Positions 19,517 through 36,291 of a DNA stretch of 64,000 nucleotides are shown piece after piece (within the stretch, counting starts at the first letter, position 1; each line of letters starts with the position of its first letter). This DNA is from Campylobacterales bacterium (GTDB taxonomy: Bacteria > Campylobacterota > Campylobacteria > Campylobacterales > Sulfurimonadaceae), in the NCBI GenBank assembly GCA_038205935.1, contig JBBRBK010000005.1, positions 4,704 to 68,703 on the forward strand, read 5' to 3'. The translations under genes and the position numbers were made by a program. A model generated the notes under the pieces. That model was not told where the DNA came from. It saw nothing but the letters and a program-made list of their open reading frames with translations, and did no database searches.

Positions 19517-20521
19517 ATGCAAGCCATCTGGTACAGTAAATCCATATTTTTTTTAATGCTAGTGAGTGTTCTTTTTAACGGTTGTGCAAAAACACAAGAG
19601 GAAAAAGAGCTCAAAACTGATGGAGATAAAGTCAGTATCAACCTTGAAGCCACTGTTTTTCCATCTCAAGAACAACAAGTCATAGCTTCCGCAGGTGGAT
19701 ATGTTAAAAAAGTTTATGTAAGAAATGGTGATAGAGTCAAAAGTGGGGACATCCTCTACGCACTTGATAAAGAGTCTCTACGCTATGATCTTCAAGGTGC
19801 AAGATCTGAGCTTACTTCTTTAGAAGGAATGCGTTCAGCAGCTTGGAATGCCTATCATTCCAAAGCAAATATCTCCGCTGTTAATCTTGCAGCATCTGAA
19901 TTACAAGATGTATCTCAACTAAAATCACAAGGATATACTAACAGCTTCGATGAAAATAATTACAAAAAAAATTATATCAATGCTATTACTACTCAAAAGA
20001 ATGATCAGATAAACAACTATGAGAAAGTCAAAAATCTTGATGCAACCATTGCCACTAGAAGATCCAATATAAAAAAGATGCAGTATGAGCTAGACCACTC
20101 AAGTGGGACTGCAGAGGTTGGTGGATTTGTTGCTGGTCTCAATATCACAGCAGGACAATCGATCAACACTGATGCAAAAATATGTTCTATCGTAGATATT
20201 GATCATGTCATAGTTCGCGGTGGCTTTGCAACAGGACTTTTACCGTTTATTCATCCAAAACAAAGAGTCGAAATCAGCTTTGTCACAACTCCTCCATATA
20301 GGACAGTAGCTTATGTCACTCAGGTAAATCCTATAGTAGATCCAAAGTTTGATAATATGACTCTTGATATAGAAGTTCCAAATAACAACTATATTTTGCA
20401 AGCAAATACTAGAGCACTAGTTAAAATCGACCTTCCAAAAGAGGGACAAAAAACAGTCAAAGAGTATTTTATGAATAAAAATGACAAAAGTGGTATTTAT
20501 CAAGTGAAGTCCACTAACTAA
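19517..20521 (+). CDS. HlyD/MFP-like periplasmic adaptor lipoprotein (orphan)
   Basis: Lipobox LFNGC. Lipoyl-like hairpin GGYVKKVYVRNGDRVKSGDILYALD. Coiled-coil middle and beta-barrel-like C-terminus. No cognate inner-membrane pump is adjacent. Confidence 0.55.
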   Translation: MQAIWYSKSIFFLMLVSVLFNGCAKTQEEKELKTDGDKVSINLEATVFPSQEQQVIASAGGYVKKVYVRNGDRVKSGDILYALDKESLRYDLQGARSELTSLEGMRSAAWNAYHSKANISAVNLAASELQDVSQLKSQGYTNSFDENNYKKNYINAITTQKNDQINNYEKVKNLDATIATRRSNIKKMQYELDHSSGTAEVGGFVAGLNITAGQSINTDAKICSIVDIDHVIVRGGFATGLLPFIHPKQRVEISFVTTPPYRTVAYVTQVNPIVDPKFDNMTLDIEVPNNNYILQANTRALVKIDLPKEGQKTVKEYFMNKNDKSGIYQVKSTN

Positions 20522-21942
20522 TCTTTATATAAATAAACCCTTCCAAGAGGAAGGGGCATAGCATTCAAGCCATCTTTTTCATACTCAAGCTTCACTGTCA
20601 CCTCTGCATCTAAACTTTTTATCCACTGCTTCGTATACGCATCATAGATCAAACTTTTTCCTGCCAGCCATTTTGAGTTAAGCTTTAAATATTTCTCTCC
20701 TGTGTAGGAGCTAGAAACTAGGACAAAACCTTTTGTAAAAAATCGTATATATCCATGGATGACACCCACTTTTTCGTAACTCTTGCCTAGTGGCTTACCC
20801 AGATCATAAAAGTAGATATCATCTTGTTCCAACTCAGAGTTATAGGGAACCTGTGCATATACGATGTTATCTGTCAACTTGCCCATCGCATAGCCATAAT
20901 AGATCCCATTTTTAGGTTGACTTAGACGATACACTTTACTGCCGGGATAAAGAATTTCATATTTTGGTCCTAAATAATTGAGATAGATAAAATTTTCAAA
21001 ACCATATTTTTTATATTTTTCTTTATAGCTCGTTAAAAGATCTATATATTTAATGGAATCATCAATTGTTTTAGAGTTATTATATATGGGAAAGTACTTT
21101 GTTGTTTGAATATTTTCTACCCATCCTTTCCCTTCAACCTGAATGGATCTTTTTTCGTCATTTGTAGATGTAATATAACTTTCTGTCATATCATACTTGA
21201 TATAAGGCAAAAGATATTTATCTTGTCTAAAAGCTTGATTTGTTATAAAAAAAACTCCTAACTCTTTTAATTTTTTATAAAAATTACCAATGATTTCATA
21301 ATAGTTTTTATGGGGATTGAGTCTTTTAAAATTATCAAGTATTATCTTGTATTTTGCATCTTCAATATACTTGCCATCAGCCCAATCGAAAAAGAGGCCA
21401 TTAAGCCCACTTGCTTTCATGTCTGCTTGCAACTGCTCTATTTTGTAATCAAATACTTTTTTGTTTGCTAGATTATAATAATAATCATGACACCATTCAT
21501 AGTGGCTTTCTTCAGAATGTAAAAATGGGCCATCAGGATTTAATGTTGCACTTTTTTTATTTTGATATATCCAATTAACTATAGGACGATTCTCTCCGCT
21601 AAGATAATAATAAAATGCAGGCATCCAGTCATATCCCAGACGATGCTCAACAAAAGCTAGCCCTGCTTTTTGAACTTTTTGAGAACTGATTCGCTTATCA
21701 TCGACTCCCCCAAACTCTACAACACTAAATCGCTTTGCCCATGCTACTTCATTCTCTCCATTAAACAGTGAAGCTATTGCGAATTCACCTTTCTTTTTAC
21801 TCACTTTCAAGGAGCTTGTTTTAGAGCTTTTAAGCGTGTGAAACTCGCTTTTAGACACAAACTGTGAGCTAACATCTGGTAACGCATAAATGGATGTATG
21901 ATATAAAAAAGTTGAAATGACAACCAAAAGAACTGGCTTCAT
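20518..21942 (-). CDS. Secreted TIM-barrel glycoside-hydrolase-like protein (GH114 / PelA-hydrolase-like, tentative)
   Basis: Signal peptide. Block ASGLNGLFFDWADG resembles the GFDGVFLD-type strand of GH114/GHL families. It is the last gene of the EPS operon and its ATG overlaps the upstream TGA (ATGA). Confidence 0.4.
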   Translation of the reverse strand: MKPVLLVVISTFLYHTSIYALPDVSSQFVSKSEFHTLKSSKTSSLKVSKKKGEFAIASLFNGENEVAWAKRFSVVEFGGVDDKRISSQKVQKAGLAFVEHRLGYDWMPAFYYYLSGENRPIVNWIYQNKKSATLNPDGPFLHSEESHYEWCHDYYYNLANKKVFDYKIEQLQADMKASGLNGLFFDWADGKYIEDAKYKIILDNFKRLNPHKNYYEIIGNFYKKLKELGVFFITNQAFRQDKYLLPYIKYDMTESYITSTNDEKRSIQVEGKGWVENIQTTKYFPIYNNSKTIDDSIKYIDLLTSYKEKYKKYGFENFIYLNYLGPKYEILYPGSKVYRLSQPKNGIYYGYAMGKLTDNIVYAQVPYNSELEQDDIYFYDLGKPLGKSYEKVGVIHGYIRFFTKGFVLVSSSYTGEKYLKLNSKWLAGKSLIYDAYTKQWIKSLDAEVTVKLEYEKDGLNAMPLPLGRVYLYKD

Positions 21943-22838
21943 TTCATAAGGTCCTTCAATCTGATATTTTTACTAATAAAAATAGGATAAAAAAGGATAA
22001 AGTCCACAAGAAGTAATATCATATGATAGAGAGTTGCACTCATAAGTGCATCCTCTTTTGGAACTCCATGCGCAGTTAAAATAAATACAACAGCGCCCTC
22101 AAATGCACCAATACCAGCAGGTGCTAAAGGAATTGCAAAAGCTATACTTGAGACAATAAAGAGTTACAAGATAGTGCTCAAACTAAGACCAAAATGAACG
22201 CCATACTTAAAAAAAAGTATGTTGCTAAGTAAATACACAAACCATATATACAGTGTATATGCAAATATCCCTAGTGAGGATTTAAATAAAAGATTGATAT
22301 TTTTATAGATTTTTTGTGTATAGACTCTAAAAAATTGTATAGGTATCTTTTTTAAAAAAACTAATACATATTTTGTATTGAAAACAAGTACCACAAATAT
22401 TATGAACACTGAAAGTAAAACAATGGACTGCTTTAAAAGTTCATTTGTAAAATATCCATACGCCCATAAACAGATCAATAGAAATAAAACAATCACATCA
22501 AAAAATCTTTCGATAAGCATAATAGATAAGGCTTTATTGTAATTAAATTTATAGAATTTTTTTAAATACAAAGCCTTTGATAATTCACCCAATTTGGCAG
22601 GTAGGATAACGTTTAACATGCTTGAAACAACCATAGTTTCATAGGATATTTTAAAAGAAAGTTTAGACATCATTTGCCATCGTTGGGCCACAACGATCTG
22701 CCCTAGTACAATGGAAATAAAAGTTAAAATTATTCCAAATATGTAAAATATAGACAAATCTATTTCTTTTAGATCTAAACCATGAAAAAGATAATAGGCG
22801 ATGAGGATAAAAAAAGTAATCTGTATTAACTTATGCAT
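21939..22838 (-). pseudogene. Flippase-like (lysylphosphatidylglycerol-synthase TM region family) membrane protein interrupted by an in-frame TAA
   Basis: The ORF-track piece 22164-22838 ends ...GLSLSTIL at a TAA (22166-22164). The same frame continues for 74 codons: LFIVSSIAFAIPLAPAGIGAFEGAVVFILTAHGVPKEDALMSATLYHMILLLVDFILFYPIFISKNIRLKDLMK. This stretch carries the family PxGxGxxE motif and ends in a TGA that overlaps the next ATG. Confidence 0.6.
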
Positions 22839-23580
22839 GGATAATCTCGTGTAATTTATTTATTGTAGATCCGTTACTGTAAAAAGCTAAAAAATAATCC
22901 ACATTAAACTTTGCATTTTTTTGAAAACTCCGTATCATATTTGTATCCATTAGTTCATAAGGATGTATATATAAAGTTGGTTTCTCAATTCTTTTAAATA
23001 ATCTTTTTAAAAGCCATAAGGGAAGTACACGCAAATAGAATCCTCCACTAAATGGGATAAAGTCTCTTTTGACTGGTCTTTCTTCTATTAAACCCGATTG
23101 TGTATAAATGTTAAAAGGTTCTTTCTTATTTATTTCATTTCCGTACATGTAATTCTTCATAGGGAAGTAGGAGGAAGAATAAAGAAATCCCATTTTCACT
23201 AACTCTTCATAATATCTTTTTTCAAAAGGCATAGACCAATTAACAGCACGATATCCTACAATTTTTTTACAAATCAGATCTTCAAGATAATTTTTTGCCG
23301 TTTGTATTTCATCTTTCCAAGTCTCAAAAGAAATATTATAAATCAACTCATGATAATAGCCATGACACCCTATTTCAATACCCGCATCTGATATTTTTTT
23401 TATCAAATACGGAAATTTTTTTGCAAATGTTACCAATACAAATGCCGTTGCGCGACGATTTTGAGCAAGCTCAATAAAAATATCAATCATCTTTTCATAC
23501 TCTATCTCTGGTTTGGACGTCCATTTTATATCAAAATTCATATCTTGAATTTCTTCCACATCAATCGTAAGCCACATCAT
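22831..23580 (-). CDS. Polysaccharide deacetylase family protein (CE4-like)
   Basis: N-terminus WLTIDVEEIQD resembles the TxDVED start of the deacetylases found next to FemAB-like genes in EPS loci. GCHGYYHE His block. Overlaps both neighbours. Confidence 0.55.
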   Translation of the reverse strand: MMWLTIDVEEIQDMNFDIKWTSKPEIEYEKMIDIFIELAQNRRATAFVLVTFAKKFPYLIKKISDAGIEIGCHGYYHELIYNISFETWKDEIQTAKNYLEDLICKKIVGYRAVNWSMPFEKRYYEELVKMGFLYSSSYFPMKNYMYGNEINKKEPFNIYTQSGLIEERPVKRDFIPFSGGFYLRVLPLWLLKRLFKRIEKPTLYIHPYELMDTNMIRSFQKNAKFNVDYFLAFYSNGSTINKLHEIIHA

Positions 23581-24533
23581 AAATCCACCAAATATTTACA
23601 AAGTTTTGGTCCCATAAAGTCAACCAAAATTTTTGGAAGTTTTTTCCATACATTTGACGCTAAAGAGTATTTTTCGTAAATATCTTCTTGCTCAGAACAA
23701 ATAATATCTATCTTCACAGGCAAAGCTCCAAATTGAAGTTTAAAGTCATACGTAGGTCCTCCATAAGAGGATCTACCAAAATCAAATATCTTTACATGTA
23801 AGCGATCACACATATCTTGTAGTACACTCCAATAGATGTAATATCCCGCCATTTTTTTTGTGTAGTTTGGATCAACACCACCCCATGGATACCATGCAAG
23901 ATCTCCATCTAAAATAATACACATAGATGCTATTACACTAGTGCCATCATAGAGGTTGTAAAATACAATCTGATCTTGAAACTCATCTCTTAAGTATATA
24001 AATAATTTTTTATCTAATACAGGAGTACCATGCTTATGCACCGTCTCTGAAAAGATCTTATAAAAATCATCTATATCTTGCTGTGCGTTTCCATAGGCAA
24101 ATGAGAAGTTGTTTTTTTTCAAACTATTTTTGATCTTATTTCTACATCTTGATTTAATATTTTCATTGAAAAGTTCTTGACTACTTTTTCCTTCAAGAAA
24201 TAATCGCATCGTTACCGTATCACTTTTTTTATAATCTTTGTACTCAAAGTTTAGTGTTTTAATCTGAAAGTGATTATCTTTTCCGAGTTCAAGAAGATCA
24301 GCAATATTTTGATGAGTTCTATCTGAATAACTAAGTAAAGGAAGATAAGAAAGTGTTTTTTTTCCAATGATTGAGGAAACAACTAGAAAATCCATATAGC
24401 TTTTATATGCATACAATTCCTGTAATACTTTAGTAAACTTTTTAATAAAAGACTGGGAATGAAGCAGTTTTAAAGAGCTATTCACATTTTGTTGCATTAT
24501 GCTTTGCACCTTCACGAATGATTTGTGTAACAA
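23577..24533 (-). CDS. FemAB-like / GNAT-fold acyl(aminoacyl)transferase
   Basis: C-terminal WYPWGGVDPNYTKKMAGYYIYWSVLQDMC...FDFGRSSYGGPTYDFKLQFGA matches the FemAB-family pattern. The start is uncertain because the ORF overlaps the upstream gene by 56 nt; an alternative ATG is at 24497. Confidence 0.55.
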   Translation of the reverse strand: MLHKSFVKVQSIMQQNVNSSLKLLHSQSFIKKFTKVLQELYAYKSYMDFLVVSSIIGKKTLSYLPLLSYSDRTHQNIADLLELGKDNHFQIKTLNFEYKDYKKSDTVTMRLFLEGKSSQELFNENIKSRCRNKIKNSLKKNNFSFAYGNAQQDIDDFYKIFSETVHKHGTPVLDKKLFIYLRDEFQDQIVFYNLYDGTSVIASMCIILDGDLAWYPWGGVDPNYTKKMAGYYIYWSVLQDMCDRLHVKIFDFGRSSYGGPTYDFKLQFGALPVKIDIICSEQEDIYEKYSLASNVWKKLPKILVDFMGPKLCKYLVDL

Positions 24534-24804
24534 CTGTATTGCTATTCATCTGCCCTACATACAGGACTATATTTATAAGACTTGTAATAGCAATAACAAT
24601 ATAAACAACAAGATCGGTTCCATTTTTAATAGAAAAGAAATGTGCAACTTCATCTGCTAATGATGGGTTTAAAATAAAAAGAAATAATATAAAATATCCC
24701 GTTAGAACGCCCATTTTTTGAAATATTTTCAACCTTTGTGAGAAGGAGAATACAATAAATACAATTGTTAAAACAGCAAGTAAAAATATCTTTAAAAAAA
24801 TCAT
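24478..24804 (-). CDS. Small membrane protein (DUF2304-like GT2 partner)
   Basis: 108 aa with 3-4 TM segments, immediately downstream of and overlapping the GT2 gene (ATGA). This is the usual arrangement for DUF2304 as I recall it. Confidence 0.45.
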   Translation of the reverse strand: MIFLKIFLLAVLTIVFIVFSFSQRLKIFQKMGVLTGYFILFLFILNPSLADEVAHFFSIKNGTDLVVYIVIAITSLINIVLYVGQMNSNTVVTQIIREGAKHNATKCE

Positions 24805-25499
24805 TTTACTAAACTCCCAACAAAATAATCTAAGACAATATTAATACTGTTCCACATCGATTGTCCTTTTTGGATTGAGTACTCTGTATAGCGGATGTTA
24901 CATGGCATCTCCACATAGCGCATCTTTAATCCTTGGATTATGCTAATAATCTCGGATGCATGTGCCATTCTATTTTGAGTAATTTTAAAATTTGGAAATG
25001 CTGCGATATTAATCGCTCGAAGCCCATTATGAGAATCTGTCAACATAAGTCCCGTTGTTGTCCAAGTAAAAATTCTCGATGCCTTTAGAAGATACTTCTT
25101 TCTAGTTGGCATGTTTTGTGTTTCTCCTAAAAATCTTGATCCAAGCACAATATCCACTTTATTTTCTTGAAGTACACTGACAAAAGATTTAATATCTAAA
25201 GGATCATGTTGTCCATCAGAATCAAAAGTCACGGCGTACTTGCATCCAAGTTGTCTAGCATATTCAATCCCAGTTTGCAAAGCTGCTCCCTGCCCTAGAT
25301 TTACAACATGACGAAGCAGATAGACTCCTTTGAGACAAGCCGCCTGATAACTACGATCTTCCGAGCAATCATCTACAACAATAATAGCGAAAGCGGGATA
25401 CTGTTTTTGCAGCTCTGCCAAGACATCTCCAATAACAACTACCTCGTTATAAAGTGGGATTACAATGGCTATTTCACTACTATTTTGCACCATCTTCAA
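24801..25499 (-). CDS. Family 2 glycosyltransferase (polyprenyl-phosphate sugar synthase-like, DPM1/GtrB type)
   Basis: IAIVIPLYNE, IVVDDCSEDRS and FDSDGQHDP motifs. The 232-aa soluble GT-A domain lacks C-terminal TM helices. Confidence 0.85.
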   Translation of the reverse strand: MKMVQNSSEIAIVIPLYNEVVVIGDVLAELQKQYPAFAIIVVDDCSEDRSYQAACLKGVYLLRHVVNLGQGAALQTGIEYARQLGCKYAVTFDSDGQHDPLDIKSFVSVLQENKVDIVLGSRFLGETQNMPTRKKYLLKASRIFTWTTTGLMLTDSHNGLRAINIAAFPNFKITQNRMAHASEIISIIQGLKMRYVEMPCNIRYTEYSIQKGQSMWNSINIVLDYFVGSLVK

Positions 25500-25507
25500 T
25501 TCCTTTT

Positions 25508-27010
25508 TTAAGATATATCATTTTTTGATTTAAGCTTATCTATTTTATTTTTTATGCTTTTTTCAACCTCTAAGAATGCATCGACAACAACATTACTAAA
25601 CATCTTCTCTTTTAAAGCAATAATCTCTGATACTGCTTGCTCGTGAGTTTTTCCTGCTTTATAGGAACGATCACCGGTAATACCAGCATAGAACTCACCA
25701 AGCGCTACAATCTGTGCATTAAGCGGTATTTGTGATTCTTTTAAACCTAAAGGGTAGCCTTTGCCATCATATCTTTCATGATGAAATTTTATAATATCTA
25801 CAATTGGATAGATATGAGCAATTGGCTCGACTAGGATACTTCCTATCAAAGGATGTTCTTTTATAAGGTTCATCTCGGTTTCACCAAACTGATCTTTATC
25901 TAACACAGCTAAAAGATCACCAATCATTCCTATGTCGTGTAAATATGCTCCCATAGAGATAGCATCTATATCATTTTGTGATAAGAAAAGTGATCCTGCG
26001 ATATCAACAGAAACCACTTGAACAATCAGAGAGTGGTTTTTATAATATACGTTTTCTAATTCGATGGCTTCATTGGTAAAATTAAGAAGTTCTATATAAT
26101 TTTGGACGATCTCACTGTTTTTATCACTATTCATCATAAAGGCGCCAGCCATATCTAAAAATGAACCTACTTGTGTAACAGTATCTCCTTGTAAAGTTTT
26201 ATCATCATAAAATTCCAATTTATACGGAGTATTTCTAATATAAAACACCTTTTGTAGAGTAGTTAGATTCTTTGGTTTATATTCAAAAACAGTTTCATTC
26301 TCTTTTGTTAAAAGTTTTGCACCTTTTGCTTTTGTGATTTTTAAAACAAGTGCAACGAAAAATTTAAAAAACTGCTTTTTATCCATTTGTAATTTCATTA
26401 AAGAGATAGAGGTATCACGGCTTACATTTGAAAGTCTGCCTTCACCTTTAGAATTAAAACTATTTGATATCTCATCATAATAACTCAGCATAATGTCAAA
26501 AAAACCTGTGTATTTTTTTAAATCAGGCCTAGAGTAGGAAAAAAAGAGGAGCATACTTTTTTCACTGCTGTTAATAAAATTACTTACCATATAATTGCCA
26601 CTTTTTAAAAATGTTTTGATCTCTTTTTTACTAACTCGTAGTGGAACTGCAACACTCTTTTCTAAAACAGCATTCGATTCTACAAGAATATATGTTTCAC
26701 CTCTGAGTTCATATAACCCGCAGAACTTCGCATCTACAAGATCAATACTTTTAAGTAAAAAAAGATCTACATCTTTAAGAGATTGCTTCGAACTCAACTC
26801 GTGCAAATAATCATTAAAGCGATTAAAATCGGCCTGTAAGCGTAAGTTTTTCTTAAATAAAAACATGTAGACAAACAATAGCAACAAAGCAATGAGAAGA
26901 AAAAACCACCATGCTTGACCTAAAAAGGTGTTTAATTCAGCCAAATTTGACTTAATGATATCTGGTAATATAAAATTAAAATAGTATCTACTCTGTTCAA
27001 ATGTTGTCAT
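25508..27010 (-). CDS. Membrane-anchored HD-GYP domain protein (c-di-GMP phosphodiesterase family) with an uncharacterised, GAF-like N-terminal sensor region
   Basis: One TM (AWWFFLLIALLLLFVYMFLF). About 300 aa of unassigned region. HD-GYP core GAYLHDIGMIG ... FHHERYDGKGYPLGL looks catalytically intact. The ATG at 27010 is preferred over the TTG at 27043. Confidence 0.85.
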   Translation of the reverse strand: MTTFEQSRYYFNFILPDIIKSNLAELNTFLGQAWWFFLLIALLLLFVYMFLFKKNLRLQADFNRFNDYLHELSSKQSLKDVDLFLLKSIDLVDAKFCGLYELRGETYILVESNAVLEKSVAVPLRVSKKEIKTFLKSGNYMVSNFINSSEKSMLLFFSYSRPDLKKYTGFFDIMLSYYDEISNSFNSKGEGRLSNVSRDTSISLMKLQMDKKQFFKFFVALVLKITKAKGAKLLTKENETVFEYKPKNLTTLQKVFYIRNTPYKLEFYDDKTLQGDTVTQVGSFLDMAGAFMMNSDKNSEIVQNYIELLNFTNEAIELENVYYKNHSLIVQVVSVDIAGSLFLSQNDIDAISMGAYLHDIGMIGDLLAVLDKDQFGETEMNLIKEHPLIGSILVEPIAHIYPIVDIIKFHHERYDGKGYPLGLKESQIPLNAQIVALGEFYAGITGDRSYKAGKTHEQAVSEIIALKEKMFSNVVVDAFLEVEKSIKNKIDKLKSKNDIS

Positions 27011-29180
27011 TTTTTTTCTTTTCCTCTTCTTGTAATTTATCAATATATTCTTGATTGTCTATTTCATAAATACTCACTGTACCCGTATTTTTGTACAATT
27101 TAATGTTGTGATGATTCGCACTATATATTAGAACCCAAGTTTTAATATTCTTTTGCACATCACCTCTCCAGCGATAATACCATTCATTTAGACCCATATA
27201 ATTCCCTGGAAAATTTTCTACAAAGACATAAACTTTATTCGTCGGTACTTCAAGATAATGTGCTGTTGGAGAATAGTCCATTAGAAAATTTTGAGTGTTT
27301 AGGTGATACCCTTTGTTTAAAACTTTAGCGTAAGCCTGAACGTATGCGACAGCGGTCCAGGTAAAAGGCCTATTTTCATCATTAATTTTCAAAATTGTTT
27401 CTGGGATCGAGGTATATTCTATTTCATTAAGGCTTGTCCAAAATCTGTCAGAATTAATCCATTTTGGAAGAACTAATAGTCCTATAGCAAATATTACATA
27501 GGCAAATAATATAATTGGATATTTTGTATGTTTCTTAAAGGTCCAAAAAATCGGTTTATAAAAAAAATAAAAAAAATAGAAAGAAGAAAGAAGAGTAATC
27601 GATAAAAAAAGATACTCAGCCTGTCTGCTCTGTTTTGCTAAAAGAGGCAATCCTGCATTTGGTCCAAAATAGGAGATAAAAACAGCTGTCACAATTAACA
27701 AAATCGATATATTCACAAATCTTTTTTTTGTGAACAAAGCCACAATAAAAGAAAATCCAACCATAATAAATAAAAAAATATGGACTTTCGTAATATGTAC
27801 AATGGATACTGAATTAATACCAAGAGTAACAGTTTGTTTCATCTGATTTTTTGTCTGAAGCAGTTTATCTATAAAAGGTGCAGCAGCACCAAAATCTTGT
27901 GGTATTCCAAATTTTATGATCGAGAGCATCCATAGATTTCCTACAATCGTAGCAATTACAACAACTAATAAACCTTTTTTCAAAAGCTTCATATCAATTT
28001 TTCTAAATAATAAAGCATTGATCGCAATAAGTACACTCATAATAGCCAAAAAGATTGCTCCACCACCATGGAAAGTAAAAACAAGCATCAATGTTAAACC
28101 GTACATGTAAAGATAACGGTTTAGCTTTGTATCTAATGTTTTTATTAAAAAATATGCATTTAAGAGTACAAACACAGATGCTTCTTCATAAGCCAATCCA
28201 GAAACATACCTTAAATAAGGAATATCACCAATATTATTTCCCTGTGTTAATAGATCACTCATCTGAGGTGCATAAAATAACAGGTGATGAAAATCAATAA
28301 TTTGGGGATTAGAGATCTCAAATATTTTTCCTAAAATAATATTTGCAAGCGGACTCATCAAGACTAGTCCATGAACCATAACTGCAACTAAACCAACATA
28401 CTTAGAATGTGTATAATCTCTTACAACATAGTATATAGAAAGATAAAGAGCCAAAAGAATTAAAATAGGAAAAAGGCTAAAGAGGATAATCTGATCAAGA
28501 TTTGTAAAAAGATTCACAAAATAAATAATAATTGCTTGTCCATAAAAATCTGCACCAAAACTTTTATTGTCTGCGAAAAGTGTATTTTGCTGTAATATAC
28601 CAACCCATTCAATAAACTGAGCAGTATCTGGCATAGGATCACCGTAACTCAGCAAACCTCGAGCCATTAGCATAGCTATAATATAAAAAAATACCGATAC
28701 AAAAAGAGATGCCCGCAAAAAAGAATAAAATGTCATATCCTCTTGTTTATGAGTAAACCATTTTTTTGTATCACTAACTATTTTTTTACTTACCTCTTTT
28801 TTATTATCTAAGAGGTGTAAAAAGAAAACCATGGCACTTACTTTTATATATACAAATATATGAAAAATATCTTTTTTATAGTGCCATTTCAAAATAGCCA
28901 ACTTAGTTAAAACGAGCATAAAAATAAAAAGAAGAAGACTAAAAGCTTTAATAAAAATCAAAAATGTAACAACAATTTCAATATAAGCTGTCATATATAC
29001 AAAATTAAAAACTACTTTTTGCATACCCTCACCTGTATATTCTTGAGGAAATAACTTTGTTGGTAAAAGATAAAACATACCATACGCTAAGATCAATATT
29101 TTAACAATATACCAAATATTTTTTATAAGTATTTGGTATATAACATCGAGATCTAAAAAATATATACTATGCGGTATCAT
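26997..29180 (-). CDS. Large polytopic membrane protein with C-terminal extracytoplasmic domain (possible GT-C / YfhO-like glycosyltransferase; function unknown)
   Basis: 727-aa ORF. More than 12 hydrophobic segments followed by a soluble tail of about 130 aa. No motif confidently recognised. Confidence 0.5.
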   Translation of the reverse strand: MIPHSIYFLDLDVIYQILIKNIWYIVKILILAYGMFYLLPTKLFPQEYTGEGMQKVVFNFVYMTAYIEIVVTFLIFIKAFSLLLFIFMLVLTKLAILKWHYKKDIFHIFVYIKVSAMVFFLHLLDNKKEVSKKIVSDTKKWFTHKQEDMTFYSFLRASLFVSVFFYIIAMLMARGLLSYGDPMPDTAQFIEWVGILQQNTLFADNKSFGADFYGQAIIIYFVNLFTNLDQIILFSLFPILILLALYLSIYYVVRDYTHSKYVGLVAVMVHGLVLMSPLANIILGKIFEISNPQIIDFHHLLFYAPQMSDLLTQGNNIGDIPYLRYVSGLAYEEASVFVLLNAYFLIKTLDTKLNRYLYMYGLTLMLVFTFHGGGAIFLAIMSVLIAINALLFRKIDMKLLKKGLLVVVIATIVGNLWMLSIIKFGIPQDFGAAAPFIDKLLQTKNQMKQTVTLGINSVSIVHITKVHIFLFIMVGFSFIVALFTKKRFVNISILLIVTAVFISYFGPNAGLPLLAKQSRQAEYLFLSITLLSSFYFFYFFYKPIFWTFKKHTKYPIILFAYVIFAIGLLVLPKWINSDRFWTSLNEIEYTSIPETILKINDENRPFTWTAVAYVQAYAKVLNKGYHLNTQNFLMDYSPTAHYLEVPTNKVYVFVENFPGNYMGLNEWYYRWRGDVQKNIKTWVLIYSANHHNIKLYKNTGTVSIYEIDNQEYIDKLQEEEKKKNDNI

Positions 29181-29187
29181 CTATACT

Positions 29188-30249
29188 CTATTTTTTTATA
29201 CTAGTTGTTGTATTGTAGTCAGAAATCTGGCCACTATTCTTATTTTCAAGAGTTATCGGTACGACGACTACACCTGTCTCGTTTTTTGATTTAAAAGGAG
29301 TTTGAACCATTTTATCCGCTTTTAATTCCTTTTTTTTATCAACTTTTTTCATAAAATAATCTAACAATTTCCATCTCAATAATTCACCATCGTACATTTT
29401 GTCTTCAAAGTCAAAAGATCGTAAAAACACGACTCCGCCCTTTCCATATTTAACAAAAGTCACCAAAGGTGTCCCATTCTCGGACTCGAGTAAGTGATCT
29501 CCCTGAGGCATAAAATCTGCGTTAAGATAGTTATCTGTAGTTATTTGAAGAGTTTTTATATCTTGAAAAAATGGGATTTTACTTTTTGTTTTATACGTTA
29601 TTTGCAACGGTTCAAAATTTATAAAATCTATAGCCTTGCTTTCAGACTTATATATGTTAACTGTTTTACCAAAGAATGAGAGCTGTGAACTTTTGGAATC
29701 CATCATATTTTTCATCGCTTGAGAATCAATAATACCATCTTTTTTAAAAGTATCATATCTCGTAGAGTAGATACCTCCATCAATCCAAAGAACTCCTCCC
29801 TCGGATATCCATCCTTTAAGAATCTTTTGCTCTTCTAAAGAAAGATTATTGCTAAATCCAATATCTTCAAAAAGATCATTAGAAACCTTTTTAAACTGTT
29901 TTACCCACATTGGAAGCACATAAATAAAATTTTCTGCAGAGGGATTACTTTTTAATTTCCAAATATCAACATCTCTCAACGAAGCAAAATGGTATTCTGA
30001 ATTAAGCTGATTATAGAACTCATTTGAAAACTTTCCTTTATACCCAACTACTCTTTGATTAGAAATAAATGGAAAATCATTTAAAAGCGCTCTACCCGTG
30101 ATTGCGTCACCTTCCAATTTTTTAGGAGTGATATTATAAACTTCTACACGTTGTGCGGAAAGTAAACTTTTTTCAAGCTCTTCATCATTTTTCGAAGCAC
30201 ATCCTCCTAACAACAAAATAACCGATAGACTCAATATATAACTCTTCAT
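29188..30249 (-). CDS. Lipoprotein of unknown function
   Basis: Lipobox LLLGGCAS. 353 aa. Lies inside the EPS operon. Confidence 0.6.
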   Translation of the reverse strand: MKSYILSLSVILLLGGCASKNDEELEKSLLSAQRVEVYNITPKKLEGDAITGRALLNDFPFISNQRVVGYKGKFSNEFYNQLNSEYHFASLRDVDIWKLKSNPSAENFIYVLPMWVKQFKKVSNDLFEDIGFSNNLSLEEQKILKGWISEGGVLWIDGGIYSTRYDTFKKDGIIDSQAMKNMMDSKSSQLSFFGKTVNIYKSESKAIDFINFEPLQITYKTKSKIPFFQDIKTLQITTDNYLNADFMPQGDHLLESENGTPLVTFVKYGKGGVVFLRSFDFEDKMYDGELLRWKLLDYFMKKVDKKKELKADKMVQTPFKSKNETGVVVVPITLENKNSGQISDYNTTTSIKK

Positions 30250-30259
30250 ATAATCTCCT

Positions 30260-31837
30260 TTAAAATGCAGAATAATAATAATATTCCATTTTTCTAAGCA
30301 TCTTGACAGTATAGCTAAAGCTTATAATCCAAAATACTAAACTTCCAATCAATAATCCTAAAACAGCATACTCTAAGCCAAACATCCGACTTAAGATCAG
30401 ACCAACTAAGATATTTAATCCAACAGCAATAGCTATAGAAGTGATAGAAAAGTTTTGTCTCGAAAATGAAAAGATGAAGAGTACATTCATCAAACCATTG
30501 ACCATAAATACGTACGAGATAGCTGCTACCCAAAATACATATGGTGTATAACTATGAAAAAAAGTACCTAAATACCTGATATGCCAATAATGGTACAACC
30601 AATAGGTTACATAATAAGTCAATAATATAATCACTATCGCAAATACAAGATAAACTATATTAAACTTTGTAAAAAAGTTTTTTATTTCACGATTGAATTT
30701 CTTGTATTCTTTATATTTGTACTGTATTACCAAATCATTAATACGGTACATAAATTCATGGATACTAATCTCCGTAAATCCCATCATAAGGATCAAAACT
30801 ATCAAAGCCCAATCAAGTCCCAATTCATATGGAACATTAAACCATATAAAATATGGTTTAGCCGGAACATATGTACTCCAAGCTATAATCCTATCTGTCA
30901 CAAGAAATACAAAATAGAAAAAACCATACATGTAAAAGGTGATCAATGAATAAAATAACATTGATGCACGTGGTATTTCTTCACCCTCGGAGATAGTATT
31001 TTTCTTTTTTAAACGTCTTATTTTTCTTATTACCAATATAAATAAAAGAATATTAATAATAACTAAAGAGATGAATTGTGCTTCTGGAAGCTTTACTTTT
31101 ATAATTGCATGGGCAATATAAGTTAAAATCATCGCCAAAAGAAAAAATCCTAAGATCTTTGTATACTCTTCAAACATATAATAAACGGAGATATTTAAAA
31201 ATAAAAATGATAATAAAAGATAAAACACTATCAAAACATAAAAATAATAAAATGGAAAAATATGAAAAAAGAGTTGAATCAGCAACACGACTAAACCCAC
31301 TCCAAGAATTATTAACAACCCTACTTTTTTCAAAGCCTCAGTCACATTTGCAGCTAAAATAAATTCATCCTGTTTAAGATAAAAAAGACCTTTTCTTCCG
31401 ATTGCTTGTGCCGATGCACCAGTCACAATAAGCGCTAAGAATGTTCCAAGTGCAATAGCTGTTGCTGTTTCTTGATCCATATTTACGCCAGACCACAGAG
31501 CATATCCAATTGTTAGCGTAAAAAAAATCTGCACAAACATAGGCATTGCAAAAGCAAGACCACGGATATAATTTAGAAATACTCTTTTTCCAAAAGGTGG
31601 AATTTTCTCCCAATTCACAAGTGATTTTTGTGGATAGCTTTTACCTATAATATATTTTTGCATATATTCACCCATATCAAAAACACTTGTAAAGCCATAT
31701 TCCTTAACAGCATCAATATCCCGTATGCCATAAATTTCAAGTAATGCCGTCATCTCCCAAACGTCAAGAGGTTTACCTTTCTCTTTAGTTATTTCATGAT
31801 AGAGTTCCGCTAAATCGATGCTGCTGATTGCTGCCAT
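30260..31837 (-). CDS. Polytopic membrane protein in the PelG position (possible exopolysaccharide exporter)
   Basis: 525 aa. An N-terminal soluble segment of about 85 aa, then about 12 TM segments. It lies directly downstream of and overlaps the PelF-like gene. The assignment is positional only. Confidence 0.45.
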   Translation of the reverse strand: MAAISSIDLAELYHEITKEKGKPLDVWEMTALLEIYGIRDIDAVKEYGFTSVFDMGEYMQKYIIGKSYPQKSLVNWEKIPPFGKRVFLNYIRGLAFAMPMFVQIFFTLTIGYALWSGVNMDQETATAIALGTFLALIVTGASAQAIGRKGLFYLKQDEFILAANVTEALKKVGLLIILGVGLVVLLIQLFFHIFPFYYFYVLIVFYLLLSFLFLNISVYYMFEEYTKILGFFLLAMILTYIAHAIIKVKLPEAQFISLVIINILLFILVIRKIRRLKKKNTISEGEEIPRASMLFYSLITFYMYGFFYFVFLVTDRIIAWSTYVPAKPYFIWFNVPYELGLDWALIVLILMMGFTEISIHEFMYRINDLVIQYKYKEYKKFNREIKNFFTKFNIVYLVFAIVIILLTYYVTYWLYHYWHIRYLGTFFHSYTPYVFWVAAISYVFMVNGLMNVLFIFSFSRQNFSITSIAIAVGLNILVGLILSRMFGLEYAVLGLLIGSLVFWIISFSYTVKMLRKMEYYYYSAF

Positions 31838-33324
31838 TGCTCCTCCTCTTCTACTAAATATTGGTCATAAAGTTCTCGATAAACTCTACTGTAATTACGC
31901 ACCATATCCTCAATCGTATATCCATTTAGAATAGACTCTCTTGCGTCCAGACCCATTTGTCTTGCGATATCAGGATTATTTAAAATATAAATAGTTTTTT
32001 TTGCGAATTCTTCATAATCTTTAGGTTTAATGACAAATCCAAAATCTTCCAGAACCTCTTTAGTTCCTCCAACATCTGATGAAATAACAACTTTTTCACA
32101 AGCCATTGCTTCAATCACAACAAACGGAAAGGCTTCAGATATACTTGTAAGTAAGACAACATCGCCTTCATTGTAGGCTTCTTGAGGCTTATTGGTACTT
32201 CCTGCAAAGAAAAAATTATTTTCTATTCCTAATTCTCGTACAAGATCCTCACAAAAATGGTAATATTTTTCATTCACAGCAGGTCCATAAAGTTTAAAAA
32301 GAACATTTGGAATCTCTTTTGCAACCAATTGCGCAGTTTTTATAAATGTTTCAATATCTTTAAGAGGATCAATCCGAGCAACCATTACTACGGTTGGACG
32401 CTCATTTTTTGCCTCTCTTGGTATAAATTTATAAGTATTTGTATCGATACCGTTATAAATAACCTCTATTTTTTTTTCATCTACACCCCACTGCTTTTCC
32501 CATCGTGTATTATAAATACAAACAGGAGAAACAACATCAGCGAAATAATAATTGAGTTTTGATACCGTTGTAATCAAGCCCATCAAAAACTCTTTAGTAC
32601 GATAAGGCATTTGATTTCGTGAAGCAGCTAAATACTGTTCTCTAATGTAAACCCCATGCTCCGTAAGTAAAAATTTACTTCCGAACTTTTTCTTGGCAAT
32701 AATACAAGGCAGACCACAAAAAGCTGCTGCAGATGAGTGATATATCTGCGCCTTTGGAAGCTTTGGCAGTAGTGATATAAAAAATCGATAAAGATAACGT
32801 AGGCCCTCTATCATATCAAATACGGTAGGTAAATCTTCCTCAATATCTTCATAATGTTTCATAATATAATTTTTATAGATTTCCCAAATCGTTTCTTCAC
32901 GAAATGTTTCATAATAATCATACTCATGGAAATATTCATAAAACTGATAAAGAGCTTCCCCAAGTAATTCAAACTCCTCTTTTTTTCTATAAACATGATC
33001 TAAAACAAGGATAACTATAGATTCCAACTCTGTAATCTTATTTGCTTCTCTCGTTTTTATTTTTGACATATAGATTTCTGAAGATGAAATTTCTCGAATA
33101 TATTCTATGGGTTCTTCAGTTCCCCACAAAGGAATATTAATCACGTCCACAACATTATCAGGAATATTGAATTTCAATTTGATATATGGATGCATTTGTA
33201 TTGGAATGAGTACAAAATCAATATTTGTCAACTCATGAACAAGCGCATCTGCCCAAGTACTCACGCCACCTGTAGAGTAAGGATATGTCCCCTCACCCGT
33301 CCAAACGACCTTAATTCTGCTCAT
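31810..33324 (-). CDS. PelF-like family 4 glycosyltransferase (N-terminal DUF3492-like region + GT4 domain)
   Basis: N-terminus VVWTGEGTYPYSTGGVSTWADALVHEL resembles the PelF EGTxPYxxGGVSxW signature as I recall it. C-terminal GT4 block LLTSISEAFPFVVIEAMACEKVVISSDVGG (E-x7-E type). Confidence 0.7.
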   Translation of the reverse strand: MSRIKVVWTGEGTYPYSTGGVSTWADALVHELTNIDFVLIPIQMHPYIKLKFNIPDNVVDVINIPLWGTEEPIEYIREISSSEIYMSKIKTREANKITELESIVILVLDHVYRKKEEFELLGEALYQFYEYFHEYDYYETFREETIWEIYKNYIMKHYEDIEEDLPTVFDMIEGLRYLYRFFISLLPKLPKAQIYHSSAAAFCGLPCIIAKKKFGSKFLLTEHGVYIREQYLAASRNQMPYRTKEFLMGLITTVSKLNYYFADVVSPVCIYNTRWEKQWGVDEKKIEVIYNGIDTNTYKFIPREAKNERPTVVMVARIDPLKDIETFIKTAQLVAKEIPNVLFKLYGPAVNEKYYHFCEDLVRELGIENNFFFAGSTNKPQEAYNEGDVVLLTSISEAFPFVVIEAMACEKVVISSDVGGTKEVLEDFGFVIKPKDYEEFAKKTIYILNNPDIARQMGLDARESILNGYTIEDMVRNYSRVYRELYDQYLVEEEEQWQQSAASI

Positions 33325-34984
33325 AAAACTCTCTTTTACCTGTCAATACACTTAAAATCAAACTTTCTTTAACATTATCGCTATCAATTCCTATTAACTC
33401 ATTTTGATATTCCATAACCCTGTTAAGAGCTTCTGAATAGTCTCTGTATTGAGCAAGACCCTTAAGATATCGTTCTTTTGCCACATCCAACTTTGTTTTT
33501 GCTAATTCTAAAAGATCTTTTACATATCCCTGCTGTTTGTGAATTCTCATGAGTTGTGTATATGCTTTTTGCGTCTGATTCAAAGTATCTCTTACTTTTA
33601 AAGAAAATTTATTTTGCTCCAATAAAGCATCATACGTACTTCGTTGCATGTTTAACCTAATATCATCTCTATTGTAGATTGGAATATTCACAGACAAGCC
33701 TAAATTCCAGATTCCAGTAAAGTTAGTATTTGCAAAATCAAATACTTTTGGTTGTTCATATCCATATCCTATAGAGGATGTAAAATCCACAGTCGGATAA
33801 AATCGTCGTTTTTCACTGAGAACATCAGCATTCTTAATCTTTAGAAGATTTGATTCAATAGCAACATCACTACTATTTTCAATCGCTTCTTTTTGTAAAT
33901 CATTGATAGAACTTAAATCAATATGTAACGCTGCAGGGAAAAGTTTGAAAGCTTTTTCGCTTTTTGAATGTATGCTTTGTCTTAACACGTATTCATTTTG
34001 AAGATATTCGTAACTTGTATCAGTTACCATTCTCTCTAAATTTACATAATCATTCTTTGCGTCAATAAGATCCAGAATTGTGCTTGTCCCACTTTTATAT
34101 TTGGCCTCTATAATATCTTTAAACTTTTTTTGCTCATCAAAAATCTTTTTATAAAGAGATAAATGCTCTTGAGAATTAAAAAGATCATAATAAACTGAAG
34201 TTCCTAAAATTGCTAATCTGTCTTTTGTATTGATCGCTGTTATATCTGCTAATCTTTTATTGAGTGTTATATACGTGTCGCTTAAAGAGTATGTTCCATC
34301 ATAAAGCCTCTTATTGGCGTTTAGATTTACTGCCGCTCCAGTTGAGGAAGTATTTGTGGTGTAATTGACATATTTTCCGGTACTTACCGTACCACTTACA
34401 TAAACGTCAAAATTATATGTATCTTGTTTTATTTCAGCAAGTAAATAATCGATCTTTTGTTGAAAAAATAGTTCTTTTGCTTCTTCTGTATTTTCAAATA
34501 AAGCAGATAAGTAAGTATTGAGATATAAGTCTTCATATATATTTTGATTTGTTACTCTTGTAGAGTTTTCACTACGAAGCAGTACTTCCTGCACTTTTGA
34601 TACCGGTTTTGAGTCTTGCACTTCTAGTTTTGAGCTGTTAATTTCATTATTCAGTGTAGTAGTATTTGAGTCAACTATAGGGCTCTTTATGGTATGCATT
34701 AAAGAAGAGATAGAATCTTTCTTTTCAACTATAAAAGCGTCTGGGTAATATTTTATAACACTATCATAAGATTGTTTAACCTCTTCATATGAAGAAAAAG
34801 GACCAACTTTATACGTAAAATAATTCTTTTGTTTTTCAATATAAGCGCCCGAAAATCGTTGCAAAAATAATGTTTTTTCTACGTCAATAGGCTTTTTTGT
34901 AGATACTGCTATTATGCTATATTCTGTAGCACCTAAAGGAAATGTTACGGCGACTGCCAATACGAGATATTTTATATACTTCAT
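33311..34984 (-). CDS. Outer-membrane efflux (TolC-like) protein with N-terminal SPOR-like domain
   Basis: Signal peptide. Residues ~20-90, YSIIAVSTKK...YFTYKVGPFSSYEEVKQSYDSVIKYYPDAFIV, fit the SPOR pattern. An S/T/N-rich linker follows, then a two-repeat coiled-coil/beta OEP-like region. First gene of the EPS operon. Confidence 0.5.
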   Translation of the reverse strand: MKYIKYLVLAVAVTFPLGATEYSIIAVSTKKPIDVEKTLFLQRFSGAYIEKQKNYFTYKVGPFSSYEEVKQSYDSVIKYYPDAFIVEKKDSISSLMHTIKSPIVDSNTTTLNNEINSSKLEVQDSKPVSKVQEVLLRSENSTRVTNQNIYEDLYLNTYLSALFENTEEAKELFFQQKIDYLLAEIKQDTYNFDVYVSGTVSTGKYVNYTTNTSSTGAAVNLNANKRLYDGTYSLSDTYITLNKRLADITAINTKDRLAILGTSVYYDLFNSQEHLSLYKKIFDEQKKFKDIIEAKYKSGTSTILDLIDAKNDYVNLERMVTDTSYEYLQNEYVLRQSIHSKSEKAFKLFPAALHIDLSSINDLQKEAIENSSDVAIESNLLKIKNADVLSEKRRFYPTVDFTSSIGYGYEQPKVFDFANTNFTGIWNLGLSVNIPIYNRDDIRLNMQRSTYDALLEQNKFSLKVRDTLNQTQKAYTQLMRIHKQQGYVKDLLELAKTKLDVAKERYLKGLAQYRDYSEALNRVMEYQNELIGIDSDNVKESLILSVLTGKREFYEQN

Positions 34985-35828: not shown

Positions 35829-35884
35829 AAAATTGCCTTATATATTTTTACAGTGATTATACACAAATTTATTTAATAAAATAT

Positions 35885-36289: not shown

Positions 36290-36291
36290 GA

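Follow-up and report, generated by a model that had tools for sequence, protein, structure and literature searches.

A 64,000-nucleotide (nt) stretch of DNA from a Campylobacterales bacterium of the Sulfurimonadaceae (contig JBBRBK010000005.1; hereafter the window, in whose coordinates all positions are given) carries at 20518-34984 twelve genes that, together with a convergent thirteenth, form a genuine and conserved variant, undescribed until now, of the Pel-type exopolysaccharide (EPS) machinery, 12-13 genes in size and belonging to sulfur-oxidising Campylobacterota. The locus is a Pel system at its core, encoding PelF and a PelG-like protein, and departs from Pel in most of the other features by which membership in that system is judged. 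New among its parts are a family of GT-C-like proteins tied to a HlyD adaptor, a family of TIM-barrel hydrolases and a putative lipid-linked amino-sugar module. Only PelF and the PelG-like protein are kept and the other five Pel proteins are replaced, so that the locus defines a minimal conserved synthase and offers a comparative handle on the contributions of PelA to PelE. To our knowledge, Pel polymerisation and export are still unresolved and the function of PelG has not been demonstrated.

A Pel-type core in a twelve-gene block

According to the listing of open reading frames, the twelve genes are closely packed and co-directional on the minus strand. They encode, in the direction of transcription, a TolC-like outer-membrane factor, PelF, a PelG-like protein, a lipoprotein, a polytopic protein of 727 amino acids (aa), an HD-GYP protein, a GT2 glycosyltransferase, a DUF2304 protein, a FemAB-like protein, a CE4 deacetylase, a flippase-like protein and a secreted hydrolase. 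Neighbouring genes overlap by 14 nt at 33311-33324, 28 nt at 31810-31837, 4 nt each at 24801-24804 and 23577-23580 and 8 nt at 22831-22838, and share an ATGA at 21939-21942; the other junctions are gaps of 7-10 nt, or overlaps depending on the start codon chosen. A scan for promoters and terminators gave counts at or under shuffled expectation, and an Rfam scan of the whole window returned no match, cyclic di-GMP (c-di-GMP) riboswitches included, so that the reading of the block as a single operon rests on gene spacing and conservation of gene order. A preliminary description of this DNA had reported twelve minus-strand reading frames here; all were recovered at the positions it reported and the overlap lengths it gave are exact. 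Nearly all of its domain labels were borne out by profile searches, among them those of the HD-GYP, GT2, DUF2304, FemAB, CE4 and outer-membrane proteins and, through its lipobox, that of the lipoprotein.

Foremost among the products is PelF (31810-33324, minus strand, 504 aa), a cytoplasmic GT4 glycosyltransferase with an N-terminal DUF3492 domain. It scores 162.5 bits with NCBIfam model NF038011 against a cut-off of 100, aligned over 7-489 of 489, and matches both DUF3492 (PF11997; 8e-41, 141 bits) and Glycos_transf_1 (2e-33); the protein previously described as a GT4 with a PelF-like N-terminus is thus PelF by an NCBI equivalog model. The overlapping gene at 30260-31837 (minus strand) encodes a polytopic inner-membrane protein of 525 aa whose match to Pfam PelG (PF16933) is weak (E 9e-5, 22 bits against a gathering score of 29) and full-length (model positions 34-452 of 452 aligned). 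Twelve of its 23 orthologues also match PelG, with a best E value of 2e-9, and no other family was matched. The preliminary description had placed this protein in the PelG position; judged by the full-length Pfam alignment and the twelve relatives, it is probably a divergent PelG. Roughly its first 95 residues (1-95; motif GKPLDxWEIxALLExYGIRDIDA) make up a conserved cytoplasmic domain, which lies outside the Pfam PelG model and might substitute for PelD or PelE, and its C-terminus has the motif YYYYSA(F/Y).

The window proteins were mapped by tblastn on 54 loci found in a scan of species-representative genomes (Sulfurimonas, Sulfuricurvum, Nitratiruptor, Sulfurospirillaceae and related metagenome-assembled genomes), and presence was counted over the 24 loci that were adequately covered. 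PelF, the PelG-like protein, the lipoprotein and the 727-aa protein are present in 24 of 24, PelF being the best conserved protein of the cluster (58-77% identity), and the four genes follow one another in that order without interruption in 32 of 33 Campylobacterota loci, which come from different species and have different flanking genes. The HD-GYP protein and the GT2 were each found in 23 of the 24 loci, the flippase-like protein in 22, and the TolC-like, FemAB-like and CE4 proteins in 20 each. Caminibacter pacificus shares all twelve genes and their order, between other flanks and with an intact flippase-like gene; its thirteenth gene is the orthologue of a HlyD-type adaptor gene found at 19517-20521 in the window.

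PelA, PelB, PelC, PelD and PelE were not detected among the operon proteins, in a search that took in about 8400-46500 of the window. The operon proteins include no PelA-type periplasmic GH166 hydrolase and CE4 deacetylase; they gave no TPR, porin or PelC match, the operon encoding instead the OEP/TolC-like protein and an unrelated 353-aa lipoprotein, and no GGDEF, GAF, DUF4118 or TPR match, the operon encoding instead a transmembrane (TM) HD-GYP protein. Wzx/Wzy/Wza, ABC transporter and BcsA components were likewise not detected among them. The profile searches thereby uphold the preliminary description, which had recognised neither PelB to PelE nor any of these other export components. A lipopolysaccharide, capsule or N-glycosylation locus was rejected as an identity for the block, there being no Wzx, Wzy, Wza, Kps, ABC or PglB-type match. 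Four proteins had been left without a function in the preliminary description, and three of these can now be placed, as PelG-like, GT-C-like and TIM-barrel glycoside hydrolase, the exception being the 353-aa lipoprotein.

A GT-C-like protein family fused to HlyD adaptors

The polytopic 727-aa protein (26997-29180, minus strand) has a GT-C-like fold in its AlphaFold model, built from a homologue alignment (pLDDT 85.3, pTM 0.87). In a Foldseek comparison with the PDB, all matches with E < 0.1 are GT-C glycosyltransferases, with a probability of at least 0.97 save for one low-probability AftA chain; they comprise STT3 of several oligosaccharyltransferase complexes (2e-5), DPY19, ArnT (3e-3), AftA, AftD and Pmt4 (8e-2), and below them the list holds noise only. 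The predicted helices and the positive-inside rule point to about 15 TM segments, with the N-terminus inside and the C-terminus outside, and residues 578-727 are predicted to form a periplasmic C-terminal domain. The invariant polar residues D185, Q188, W192, R324, E332, H371, D438 and W667/R670/W671 map to periplasmic loops or to this domain, a placement that would fit the active-site layout of GT-C enzymes. On this model the protein is apparently a GT-C-fold membrane glycosyltransferase.

The family has 131 close homologues, all from Campylobacterota and all without annotation, and a profile search of 1.84 billion representative proteins brought in 537 relatives; it has no Pfam model, and no Pfam domain was found in the distant relatives with two exceptions, P0246 and P0294. 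With some 540 representatives it would be a new GT-C family, and the first to be linked to a HlyD adaptor by gene fusion. Two or three paralogues per locus, mostly in tandem, occur in L018, L019 (three), L036, L042, L063 and L064; in L036 one copy sits between the OEP gene and pelF.

The two exceptions are proteins of 1379 aa (P0246) and 1264 aa (P0294) from Anaerolineae in which a full-length 727-like domain is followed by a complete HlyD adaptor (hhalign probabilities 99.6 and 98.9), and two homologues of equal length bring the number of such fusions in Anaerolineae to four. The adaptor part of P0246 matches the window adaptor with an E value of 3e-5. The latter (19517-20521, plus strand, 334 aa) is a HlyD/RND-type periplasmic adaptor lipoprotein encoded convergently with the operon, and is recognised by HlyD_D23 (2e-15, 57 bits), HlyD_3, Biotin_lipoyl_2, TIGR01730 (2e-20) and a lipobox LFNGC. 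It is the thirteenth conserved component of the system and lay outside the coordinates of the preliminary description: the gene stands beside the cluster in 19 of the 24 loci and is a same-strand member of the operon in Caminibacter and in Sulfuricurvum, where it lies between the flippase-like and HD-GYP genes. Since both the adaptor and the C-terminal domain of the 727-aa protein lie in the periplasm, the fusion makes sense in terms of topology. By this Rosetta-stone evidence, the 727-aa protein would be the adaptor's partner in the inner membrane and, in diderms, also that of the TolC-like channel.

The channel candidate is a TolC-family outer-membrane factor of 557 aa (33311-34984, minus strand), which has a signal peptide and, at its N-terminus, some 150 additional residues that may be SPOR-like. 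It matches Pfam OEP in two repeats (1.4e-32, 113.5 bits) and TIGR01844/01845 under their cut-offs, and its gene is directly upstream of pelF in 27 of the 33 loci; in most loci it stands at the cluster together with the adaptor gene. A SPOR domain, as had been proposed for its N-terminus, was not confirmed: the window copy has no Pfam match, the match is weak in 4 of 23 relatives, and the best PDB match, a SPOR domain, has an E value of 1.1. The cluster holds no ABC, RND or MFS pump gene. An ordinary efflux pump was rejected as an identity for the system on that ground, and a genuine RND operon is encoded separately at 37029-42491.

That the 727-aa protein might be a non-catalytic scaffold or translocon of GT-C architecture, serving a Pel synthase with a novel TolC-type exporter while the GT2, FemAB-like and CE4 proteins act on nucleotide- or lipid-linked precursors of PelF, appears to us quite improbable. 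Fusion to an adaptor is typical of transporter components, the protein has no sequence match to any GT-C family, and H371 (in FHGGG) and the motif EWYYRWR, invariant in Campylobacterota, are not kept in the Anaerolineae fusions. On the other hand, the Anaerolineae proteins retain D185, the Asp of a PDT motif in the first large loop on the periplasmic side, many invariant polar residues gather on the periplasmic loops as they do in GT-C active sites, and a polyprenyl-phosphate-sugar synthase module is encoded alongside, which is a hallmark of GT-C systems (10.1101/180810; PMC11127046).

Recurrence of the core trio across phyla

Fusion genes were examined in context at three Anaerolineae loci, where two genes for DUF2194 proteins follow them and, in two of the three, a GH114 gene as well; DUF2194 is the signature domain of the Gram-positive PelA_DA (PMC7890745). 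One of these loci (L060) brings together a DUF3492 PelF-like protein, the PelG subtype, the fusion, the DUF2194 proteins and GH114. Its PelG makes up the C-terminal half of a 1051-aa protein (hhalign probability 100, E 3e-60) and has an identical LDYYYYSAY motif, and the N-terminus of the same protein corresponds to the small domain ahead of the membrane core in the window PelG-like protein (hhalign probability 96.4). No PelF or PelG was seen at the other two fusion loci within the sequence covered.

A metagenome scan, for which the query was a five-sequence alignment of distant relatives of the 727-aa protein, returned three loci, each with the PelG subtype adjoining a 727 paralogue. Two of them encode PelF (42% identity, full length), two more genes, the PelG-like protein and two 727 paralogues; on the third, a short contig, the PelG-like gene adjoining the 727 gene is all that is covered. 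In L063, a metagenome locus from another phylum, the cluster is followed at 9891-11213 by a gene for a UDP-N-acetyl-hexosaminuronic acid dehydrogenase (PDB 4r16, 5e-63), which hints at an acidic sugar derived from N-acetylhexosamine (HexNAc) in that variant; a 466-aa protein encoded between PelF and PelG at the same locus has no meaningful PDB match. Because of the Anaerolineae and metagenome loci, PelF, this PelG subtype and the 727 family are, as far as sequence comparison goes, a trio that recurs across phyla and is not confined to Campylobacterota.

The preliminary description had spoken of an undescribed EPS variant in Campylobacterota. No description of this architecture was found in PubMed Central or bioRxiv, and a systematic survey of pel operons makes no mention of it, so that the first half of the claim stands; the taxonomic restriction does not, the core trio occurring also in Chloroflexota and in other metagenome loci. 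Full-length PelA homologues have been reported in some Epsilonproteobacteria (PMC12022489), and canonical pel loci may therefore coexist in the phylum. The carriers are Sulfurimonas, Sulfuricurvum, Nitratiruptor and Caminibacter, chemolithoautotrophs that dominate at hydrothermal vents, in redoxclines and in sulfidic groundwater. As far as we know, the genetics of biofilm and mat formation in these organisms is essentially unknown.

The same distribution bears on whether the block is one system at all. Two independent neighbours could be in question, namely a Pel-like EPS unit reduced to PelF, PelG and the hydrolase, and a unit for envelope glycan modification or efflux (GT2, DUF2304, GT-C, flippase, HlyD and OEP) acting on lipooligosaccharide, a glycoprotein or another surface glycan. 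The accessory block does shift in position and strand among lineages, a pair of GH-like and 727-like genes stands alone among housekeeping genes in Nitratiruptor-type genomes, and GT2/flippase/GT-C systems normally decorate O-antigens or wall polysaccharides (PMC11127046). We nevertheless consider this very improbable: in 32 of 33 Campylobacterota loci the 727 gene forms an unbroken run with the lipoprotein gene, pelF and pelG, and it adjoins pelF and pelG again in Chloroflexota and other metagenome loci, gene overlaps of 4-28 nt span the supposed boundary, and the HlyD and OEP proteins have no pump partner in the cluster.

A putative lipid-linked sugar module

The GT2 (24801-25499, minus strand, 232 aa, no TM segment) resembles polyprenyl-phosphate HexNAc synthases. 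Its best NCBIfam match is NF058614, the polyprenyl-phospho-GalNAc synthase PpgS (1.4e-63, 214 bits against an equivalog cut-off of 370; 3-221 of 226 aligned), and it matches Glycos_transf_2 (PF00535) at 4.6e-23 and 82 bits. Directly after it, with a 4-nt overlap, comes the gene for a small DUF2304 membrane protein of the GacJ/Rv3632 type (24478-24804, minus strand, 108 aa; PF10066, 39 bits against a gathering score of 25.5). The DUF2304 proteins GacJ and Rv3632 bind and stimulate the soluble GT2 enzymes GacI and PpgS, which make polyprenyl-phosphate-GlcNAc or -GalNAc for a GT-C transferase (10.1101/180810), and a GT2, a flippase and a GT-C enzyme form a general pathway of extracytoplasmic glycosylation (PMC11127046). 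By sequence, the pair in the window resembles PpgS/Rv3632 and GacI/GacJ, makers of polyprenyl-phosphate-HexNAc.

The next three genes lie on the same strand. A cytoplasmic FemAB-like protein of the GNAT type (23577-24533) matches Acetyltransf_6 (7e-13) and the XrtA-associated model TIGR03019 (1e-35, 123 bits against a cut-off of 260). The CE4 deacetylase (22831-23580, 249 aa) is of the DUF3473/XrtA type (Polysacc_deac_1 2e-10, DUF3473 5e-13; TIGR03006 5e-36, 124 bits against a cut-off of 276). Its N-terminus, MMWLTIDVEE, has no hydrophobic leader and no signal peptide; it is therefore predicted to be cytoplasmic and is not the topological equivalent of the periplasmic PelA deacetylase. The third is a flippase-like protein of the LPG_synthase_TM (MprF TM) type (21939-22838; PF03706 1.2e-17; TIGR00374), whose intact relatives have about 300 aa. 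The preliminary description had called this gene disrupted, and a single in-frame TAA was indeed found at 22164-22166 in place of a conserved Glu codon GAA, the window reading IL*LFIVS where relatives read ILELFIFS. The TAA may reflect either a real nonsense mutation or an error in sequencing; given the nonsense codon, the modification branch may be impaired in this genome. The block formed by the GT2, DUF2304, FemAB-like, LPG_TM and CE4 genes moves as a unit and is inverted whole in Nitratiruptor.

Hydrolase, lipoprotein and HD-GYP protein

The last gene of the operon (20518-21942, minus strand) encodes a secreted protein of 474 aa with a signal peptide, a predicted TIM-barrel glycoside hydrolase domain and a C-terminal beta-sandwich. 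Its AlphaFold model, built from a homologue alignment, has a pLDDT of 94.7, and Foldseek against the PDB returned glycoside hydrolases only: GH168 fucanases (1e-10), GH66, GH13, the PelA hydrolase (5tcb, 8e-8, TMt 0.64) and a GH191 alpha-galactosaminidase (TMt 0.64), of which GH168, GH66 and GH13 match the fold as well as or better than the PelA hydrolase and GH191. The family has no Pfam or PDB sequence match; weak matches to GH114 or GHL15 appear in 5 of 42 relatives, those to Pfam GH114 in 3 of 42 at E 0.01. An hhalign comparison with a GH114 protein gave a non-significant probability of 0.7. D186 and E254, 68 residues apart, are invariant, a spacing that appears similar to that in GH114 and GH191 (PMC12054363). 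The protein is, by its modelled fold, a glycoside hydrolase, and not demonstrably a member of the GalNAc-specific families; it would found a new GH family. The GH-like label given to it previously therefore finds support at the level of fold only. The comparison with PelA made at the same time holds for the hydrolase as a TIM-barrel fold only and does not extend in topology to the deacetylase, which is predicted to be cytoplasmic and is of the XrtA/DUF3473 type. In Nitratiruptor-type genomes (L029:8752-12112, L030 and L040), the main cluster has no hydrolase gene, and a separate overlapping pair of 474-like (27% identity) and 727-like (37%) genes follows dtd among housekeeping genes.

The 353-aa lipoprotein (29188-30249, minus strand; lipobox LLGGC) has no Pfam, NCBIfam or PDB match, and its gene always lies between the PelG-like and 727 genes. 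In nine of its 24 relatives an OmpA peptidoglycan-binding domain is added at the C-terminus (best 5e-25), as it is in most orthologues of the Sulfurimonas type (L004-L018, e.g. L005:8688-9995); L024 has a SPOR-like tail instead, and the window copy has neither. Similarity of the lipoprotein to the N-terminal region of DUF2194 (PelA_DA-type) is weak (hhalign E 0.007, probability 5%).

The HD-GYP protein (25508-27043, minus strand) crosses the membrane once and consists of a cytoplasmic part of some 250 aa, for which the PDB gave no match, followed at the C-terminus by an HD-GYP domain of the c-di-GMP phosphodiesterase type (HD_5 7e-21, HD 1e-10); its true start is probably the ATG at 27010. Across 24 relatives the metal-binding and GYP residues do not vary (H337, H369-D370, H397, H421-H422-E423, D426 and G429-Y430-P431).

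A proposed mechanism

Everything beyond the domain and fold assignments, the conservation and the gene fusion is inference. With that in mind, we give an even chance to a scheme in which a Pel-type synthase makes a polymer that is modified by the GT-C enzyme via a lipid-linked amino sugar and exported by a GT-C/HlyD/TolC-like assembly under c-di-GMP control by the HD-GYP protein. In it, PelF would polymerise a HexNAc-rich, probably Pel-like chain from a UDP-sugar at the cytoplasmic face, and the PelG-like protein would pass the chain over the inner membrane. Meanwhile the GT2 and DUF2304 proteins would load polyprenyl phosphate with HexNAc in the manner of PpgS/Rv3632 and GacI/GacJ; the cytoplasmic CE4 enzyme would take the N-acetyl group off the lipid-linked HexNAc, as ArnD does; and the FemAB-like protein would re-acylate the free amine, possibly with an amino acid, by analogy with the synthase domain of MprF, which has a FemX-like GNAT fold. 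The MprF-TM-like protein would then flip the donor to the periplasmic face, where the 727-aa enzyme would put the donor residue onto the polymer. The detailed order of the CE4, FemAB-like and flippase steps is much less certain than the overall scheme.

For export, the 727-aa protein would also act as the inner-membrane partner of the HlyD adaptor and the TolC-like channel, in place of PelB and PelC. The lipoprotein, through the OmpA domain seen in its relatives, may tie the assembly to peptidoglycan, the secreted TIM-barrel hydrolase may trim or free the polymer, and the membrane HD-GYP protein may couple activity to c-di-GMP in place of PelD. A bolder claim, which we hold to be doubtful, is that these loci represent a new class of secretion machine reaching from Campylobacterota to Chloroflexota and other phyla, in which a GT-C protein of a new family is the inner-membrane part of a HlyD/TolC assembly and both finishes and extrudes the PelF-PelG polymer. 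If true, it would combine the logic of synthase-dependent, lipid-linked and tripartite-efflux systems and fall outside the Wzx/Wzy, ABC and synthase categories.

The division of labour could also be reversed, the GT-C 727 enzymes polymerising in the periplasm from polyprenyl-phosphate-HexNAc, as the mycobacterial Aft/Emb enzymes do with arabinan, and feeding the HlyD/TolC duct, with PelF and PelG providing a primer or flipping a lipid-linked intermediate. Tandem 727 paralogues (L018, L019, L036, L042, L063 and L064), the presence of the GT2 in 23 of 24 loci and the 727::HlyD fusion, which sets the GT-C domain at the entrance of the duct, would all agree with such an arrangement, as would the classing of PelG in the MATE/MOP superfamily. 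We regard it as unlikely for three reasons: PelF, always present and best conserved at 58-77% identity, fits a main polymerase better than a primer enzyme; the Anaerolineae fusion loci have GT4 enzymes and no GT2/DUF2304 nearby; and PelF is the sole glycosyltransferase in characterised Pel systems (PMC7112194). In its favour, a MATE/MOP-type protein can flip polyprenyl-phosphate sugars in three-component systems (PMC11127046).

Several observations weigh against the scheme in which PelF and PelG make the polymer and the 727-aa protein modifies and exports it. The identities of polymer, donor sugar and acyl group are matters of inference. The PelG match of the window copy falls under the Pfam gathering score, and the TM-scores of the 727-aa model with its high-probability GT-C matches are modest (0.32-0.46), with no sequence match to any GT-C family in Pfam, NCBIfam or PDB sequence searches. 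The fusion shows that the 727 and HlyD proteins cooperate and not that a polymer passes through them. Of the 24 main loci, 9 have the hydrolase and 15 lack it, the DUF2304 protein is found in only 15 of 24, and in 8 of 24 the PpgS-like GT2 is swapped for another GT2 of about 30% identity. No GT2/DUF2304 pair was found near the Anaerolineae fusion loci, so that not every locus of the 727 family encodes a lipid-linked donor in cis. The sequence of reactions from CE4 to FemAB to flippase rests only on the Arn and MprF analogies, and this copy of the locus may be in decay, as the nonsense codon in its flippase-like gene could indicate.

Comparison with known systems

Like the Pel loci of P. aeruginosa (pelABCDEFG) and B. 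cereus (pelDEA_DAFG), the locus described here has PelF (GT4 plus DUF3492) followed by a PelG-like protein in a single operon of overlapping genes, an associated hydrolase with a TIM barrel like that of the PelA hydrolase and a link to c-di-GMP, and in Chloroflexota the 727-containing subtype sits with DUF2194 (PelA_DA-type) and GH114 proteins. It differs from them in having no PelA, no TPR-porin PelB, no PelC, no PelD with its GAF domain and degenerate GGDEF receptor and no PelE; in its deacetylase, which is predicted to be cytoplasmic and is of the XrtA/DUF3473 type; in an HD-GYP protein with intact catalytic motifs where Pel has a c-di-GMP receptor; in the extra N-terminal domain on PelG; and in the addition of the GT-C-like enzyme, the TolC-like channel, the HlyD adaptor and the polyprenyl-phosphate-sugar module. 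In the Gram-negative Pel system PelG is a 12-TM protein of the EPS-E family, and the product is alpha-1,4-GalNAc from which part of the N-acetyl groups have been removed.

With the three-component glycosylation systems (GtrA/GtrB/Gtr*, GacI/GacJ/GacK/GacL of S. pyogenes and PpgS/Rv3632/Rv3779 of M. tuberculosis) it shares the grouping of a GT2, a DUF2304 protein, a candidate flippase and a GT-C fold. The acceptor, in contrast, would be a Pel-like EPS in place of an O-antigen, a rhamnan or arabinogalactan; the candidate flippase belongs to the MprF-TM family and not to GtrA, Wzx, MATE or SMR, none of which is present; the CE4 and FemAB-like proteins are inserted; and the GT-C protein is of no described sequence family and is paired with HlyD. 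The Arn pathway (ArnC/ArnD/ArnEF/ArnT) is similar in logic only, through its GT2 donor synthesis, CE4 de-acylation, flippase and GT-C transfer, and differs in sugar, acceptor and flippase family, the window locus having an extra FemAB-like step.

TolC tripartite exporters, such as DevBCA-TolC for heterocyst glycolipids, likewise combine an outer-membrane factor, a HlyD-type adaptor and an inner-membrane partner, whereas the window locus has two of these three parts in the usual form; the partner here is GT-C-like, a kind not known from described systems, and not of the ABC, RND or MFS type, and the cargo would be a polysaccharide. The loci for XrtA and PEP-CTERM proteins offer the closest counterparts of the FemAB-like and DUF3473 deacetylase pair, in TIGR03019 and TIGR03006; both scores are far under the cut-offs, and the operon encodes no exosortase, EpsI or PEP-CTERM protein. 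A PEP-CTERM/XrtA locus was rejected on the grounds of these scores and the lack of an exosortase in the operon.

Genomic setting and neighbouring genes

The G+C content of the operon block, at about 30-33%, is a little under the window average. The operon is flanked by the housekeeping genes polA, dnaJ, serA and rpsA and a ccsBA-type cytochrome c assembly gene, and the locus is therefore chromosomal. The hydrolase and adaptor genes overlap convergently by 4 nt, and on the minus strand at 20538-20555, within the last codons of the hydrolase gene, lies a 7-bp GC-rich hairpin with a T-tract, which may serve as a bidirectional terminator at this overlap.

Directly upstream of the operon and on the same strand (35019-36735) are genes for an HDOD protein, an Rrf2-family regulator and a DUF4395 protein, the HDOD stop codon lying 34 nt from the start of the OEP gene. 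The three may be co-transcribed with the operon in this genome; the HDOD and Rrf2 genes were rejected as members of the system, being present in 0 of the 24 related loci. Farther on, the plus strand carries the separate, ordinary efflux operon at 37029-42491, with genes for an OEP protein (37029-38396), a HlyD protein (38393-39181) and an RND pump. Two reading frames of 528 and 570 aa, which meet at 40779, make up this pump and match positions 2-498 and 526-1016 of the ACR_tran model; the break is either a frameshift or a natural split.

Directly upstream of the adaptor gene, on the plus strand at 18807-19463, lies a gene for a PAP2 lipid phosphatase (PAP2 1e-13) with weak similarity to undecaprenyl-diphosphatases. 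It is loosely associated with the system, a PAP2 homologue standing beside the cluster in at least seven other loci (L006, L008, L010, L013, L017, L044 and L056), and this neighbourhood is suggestive of a link with polyprenyl-phosphate recycling.

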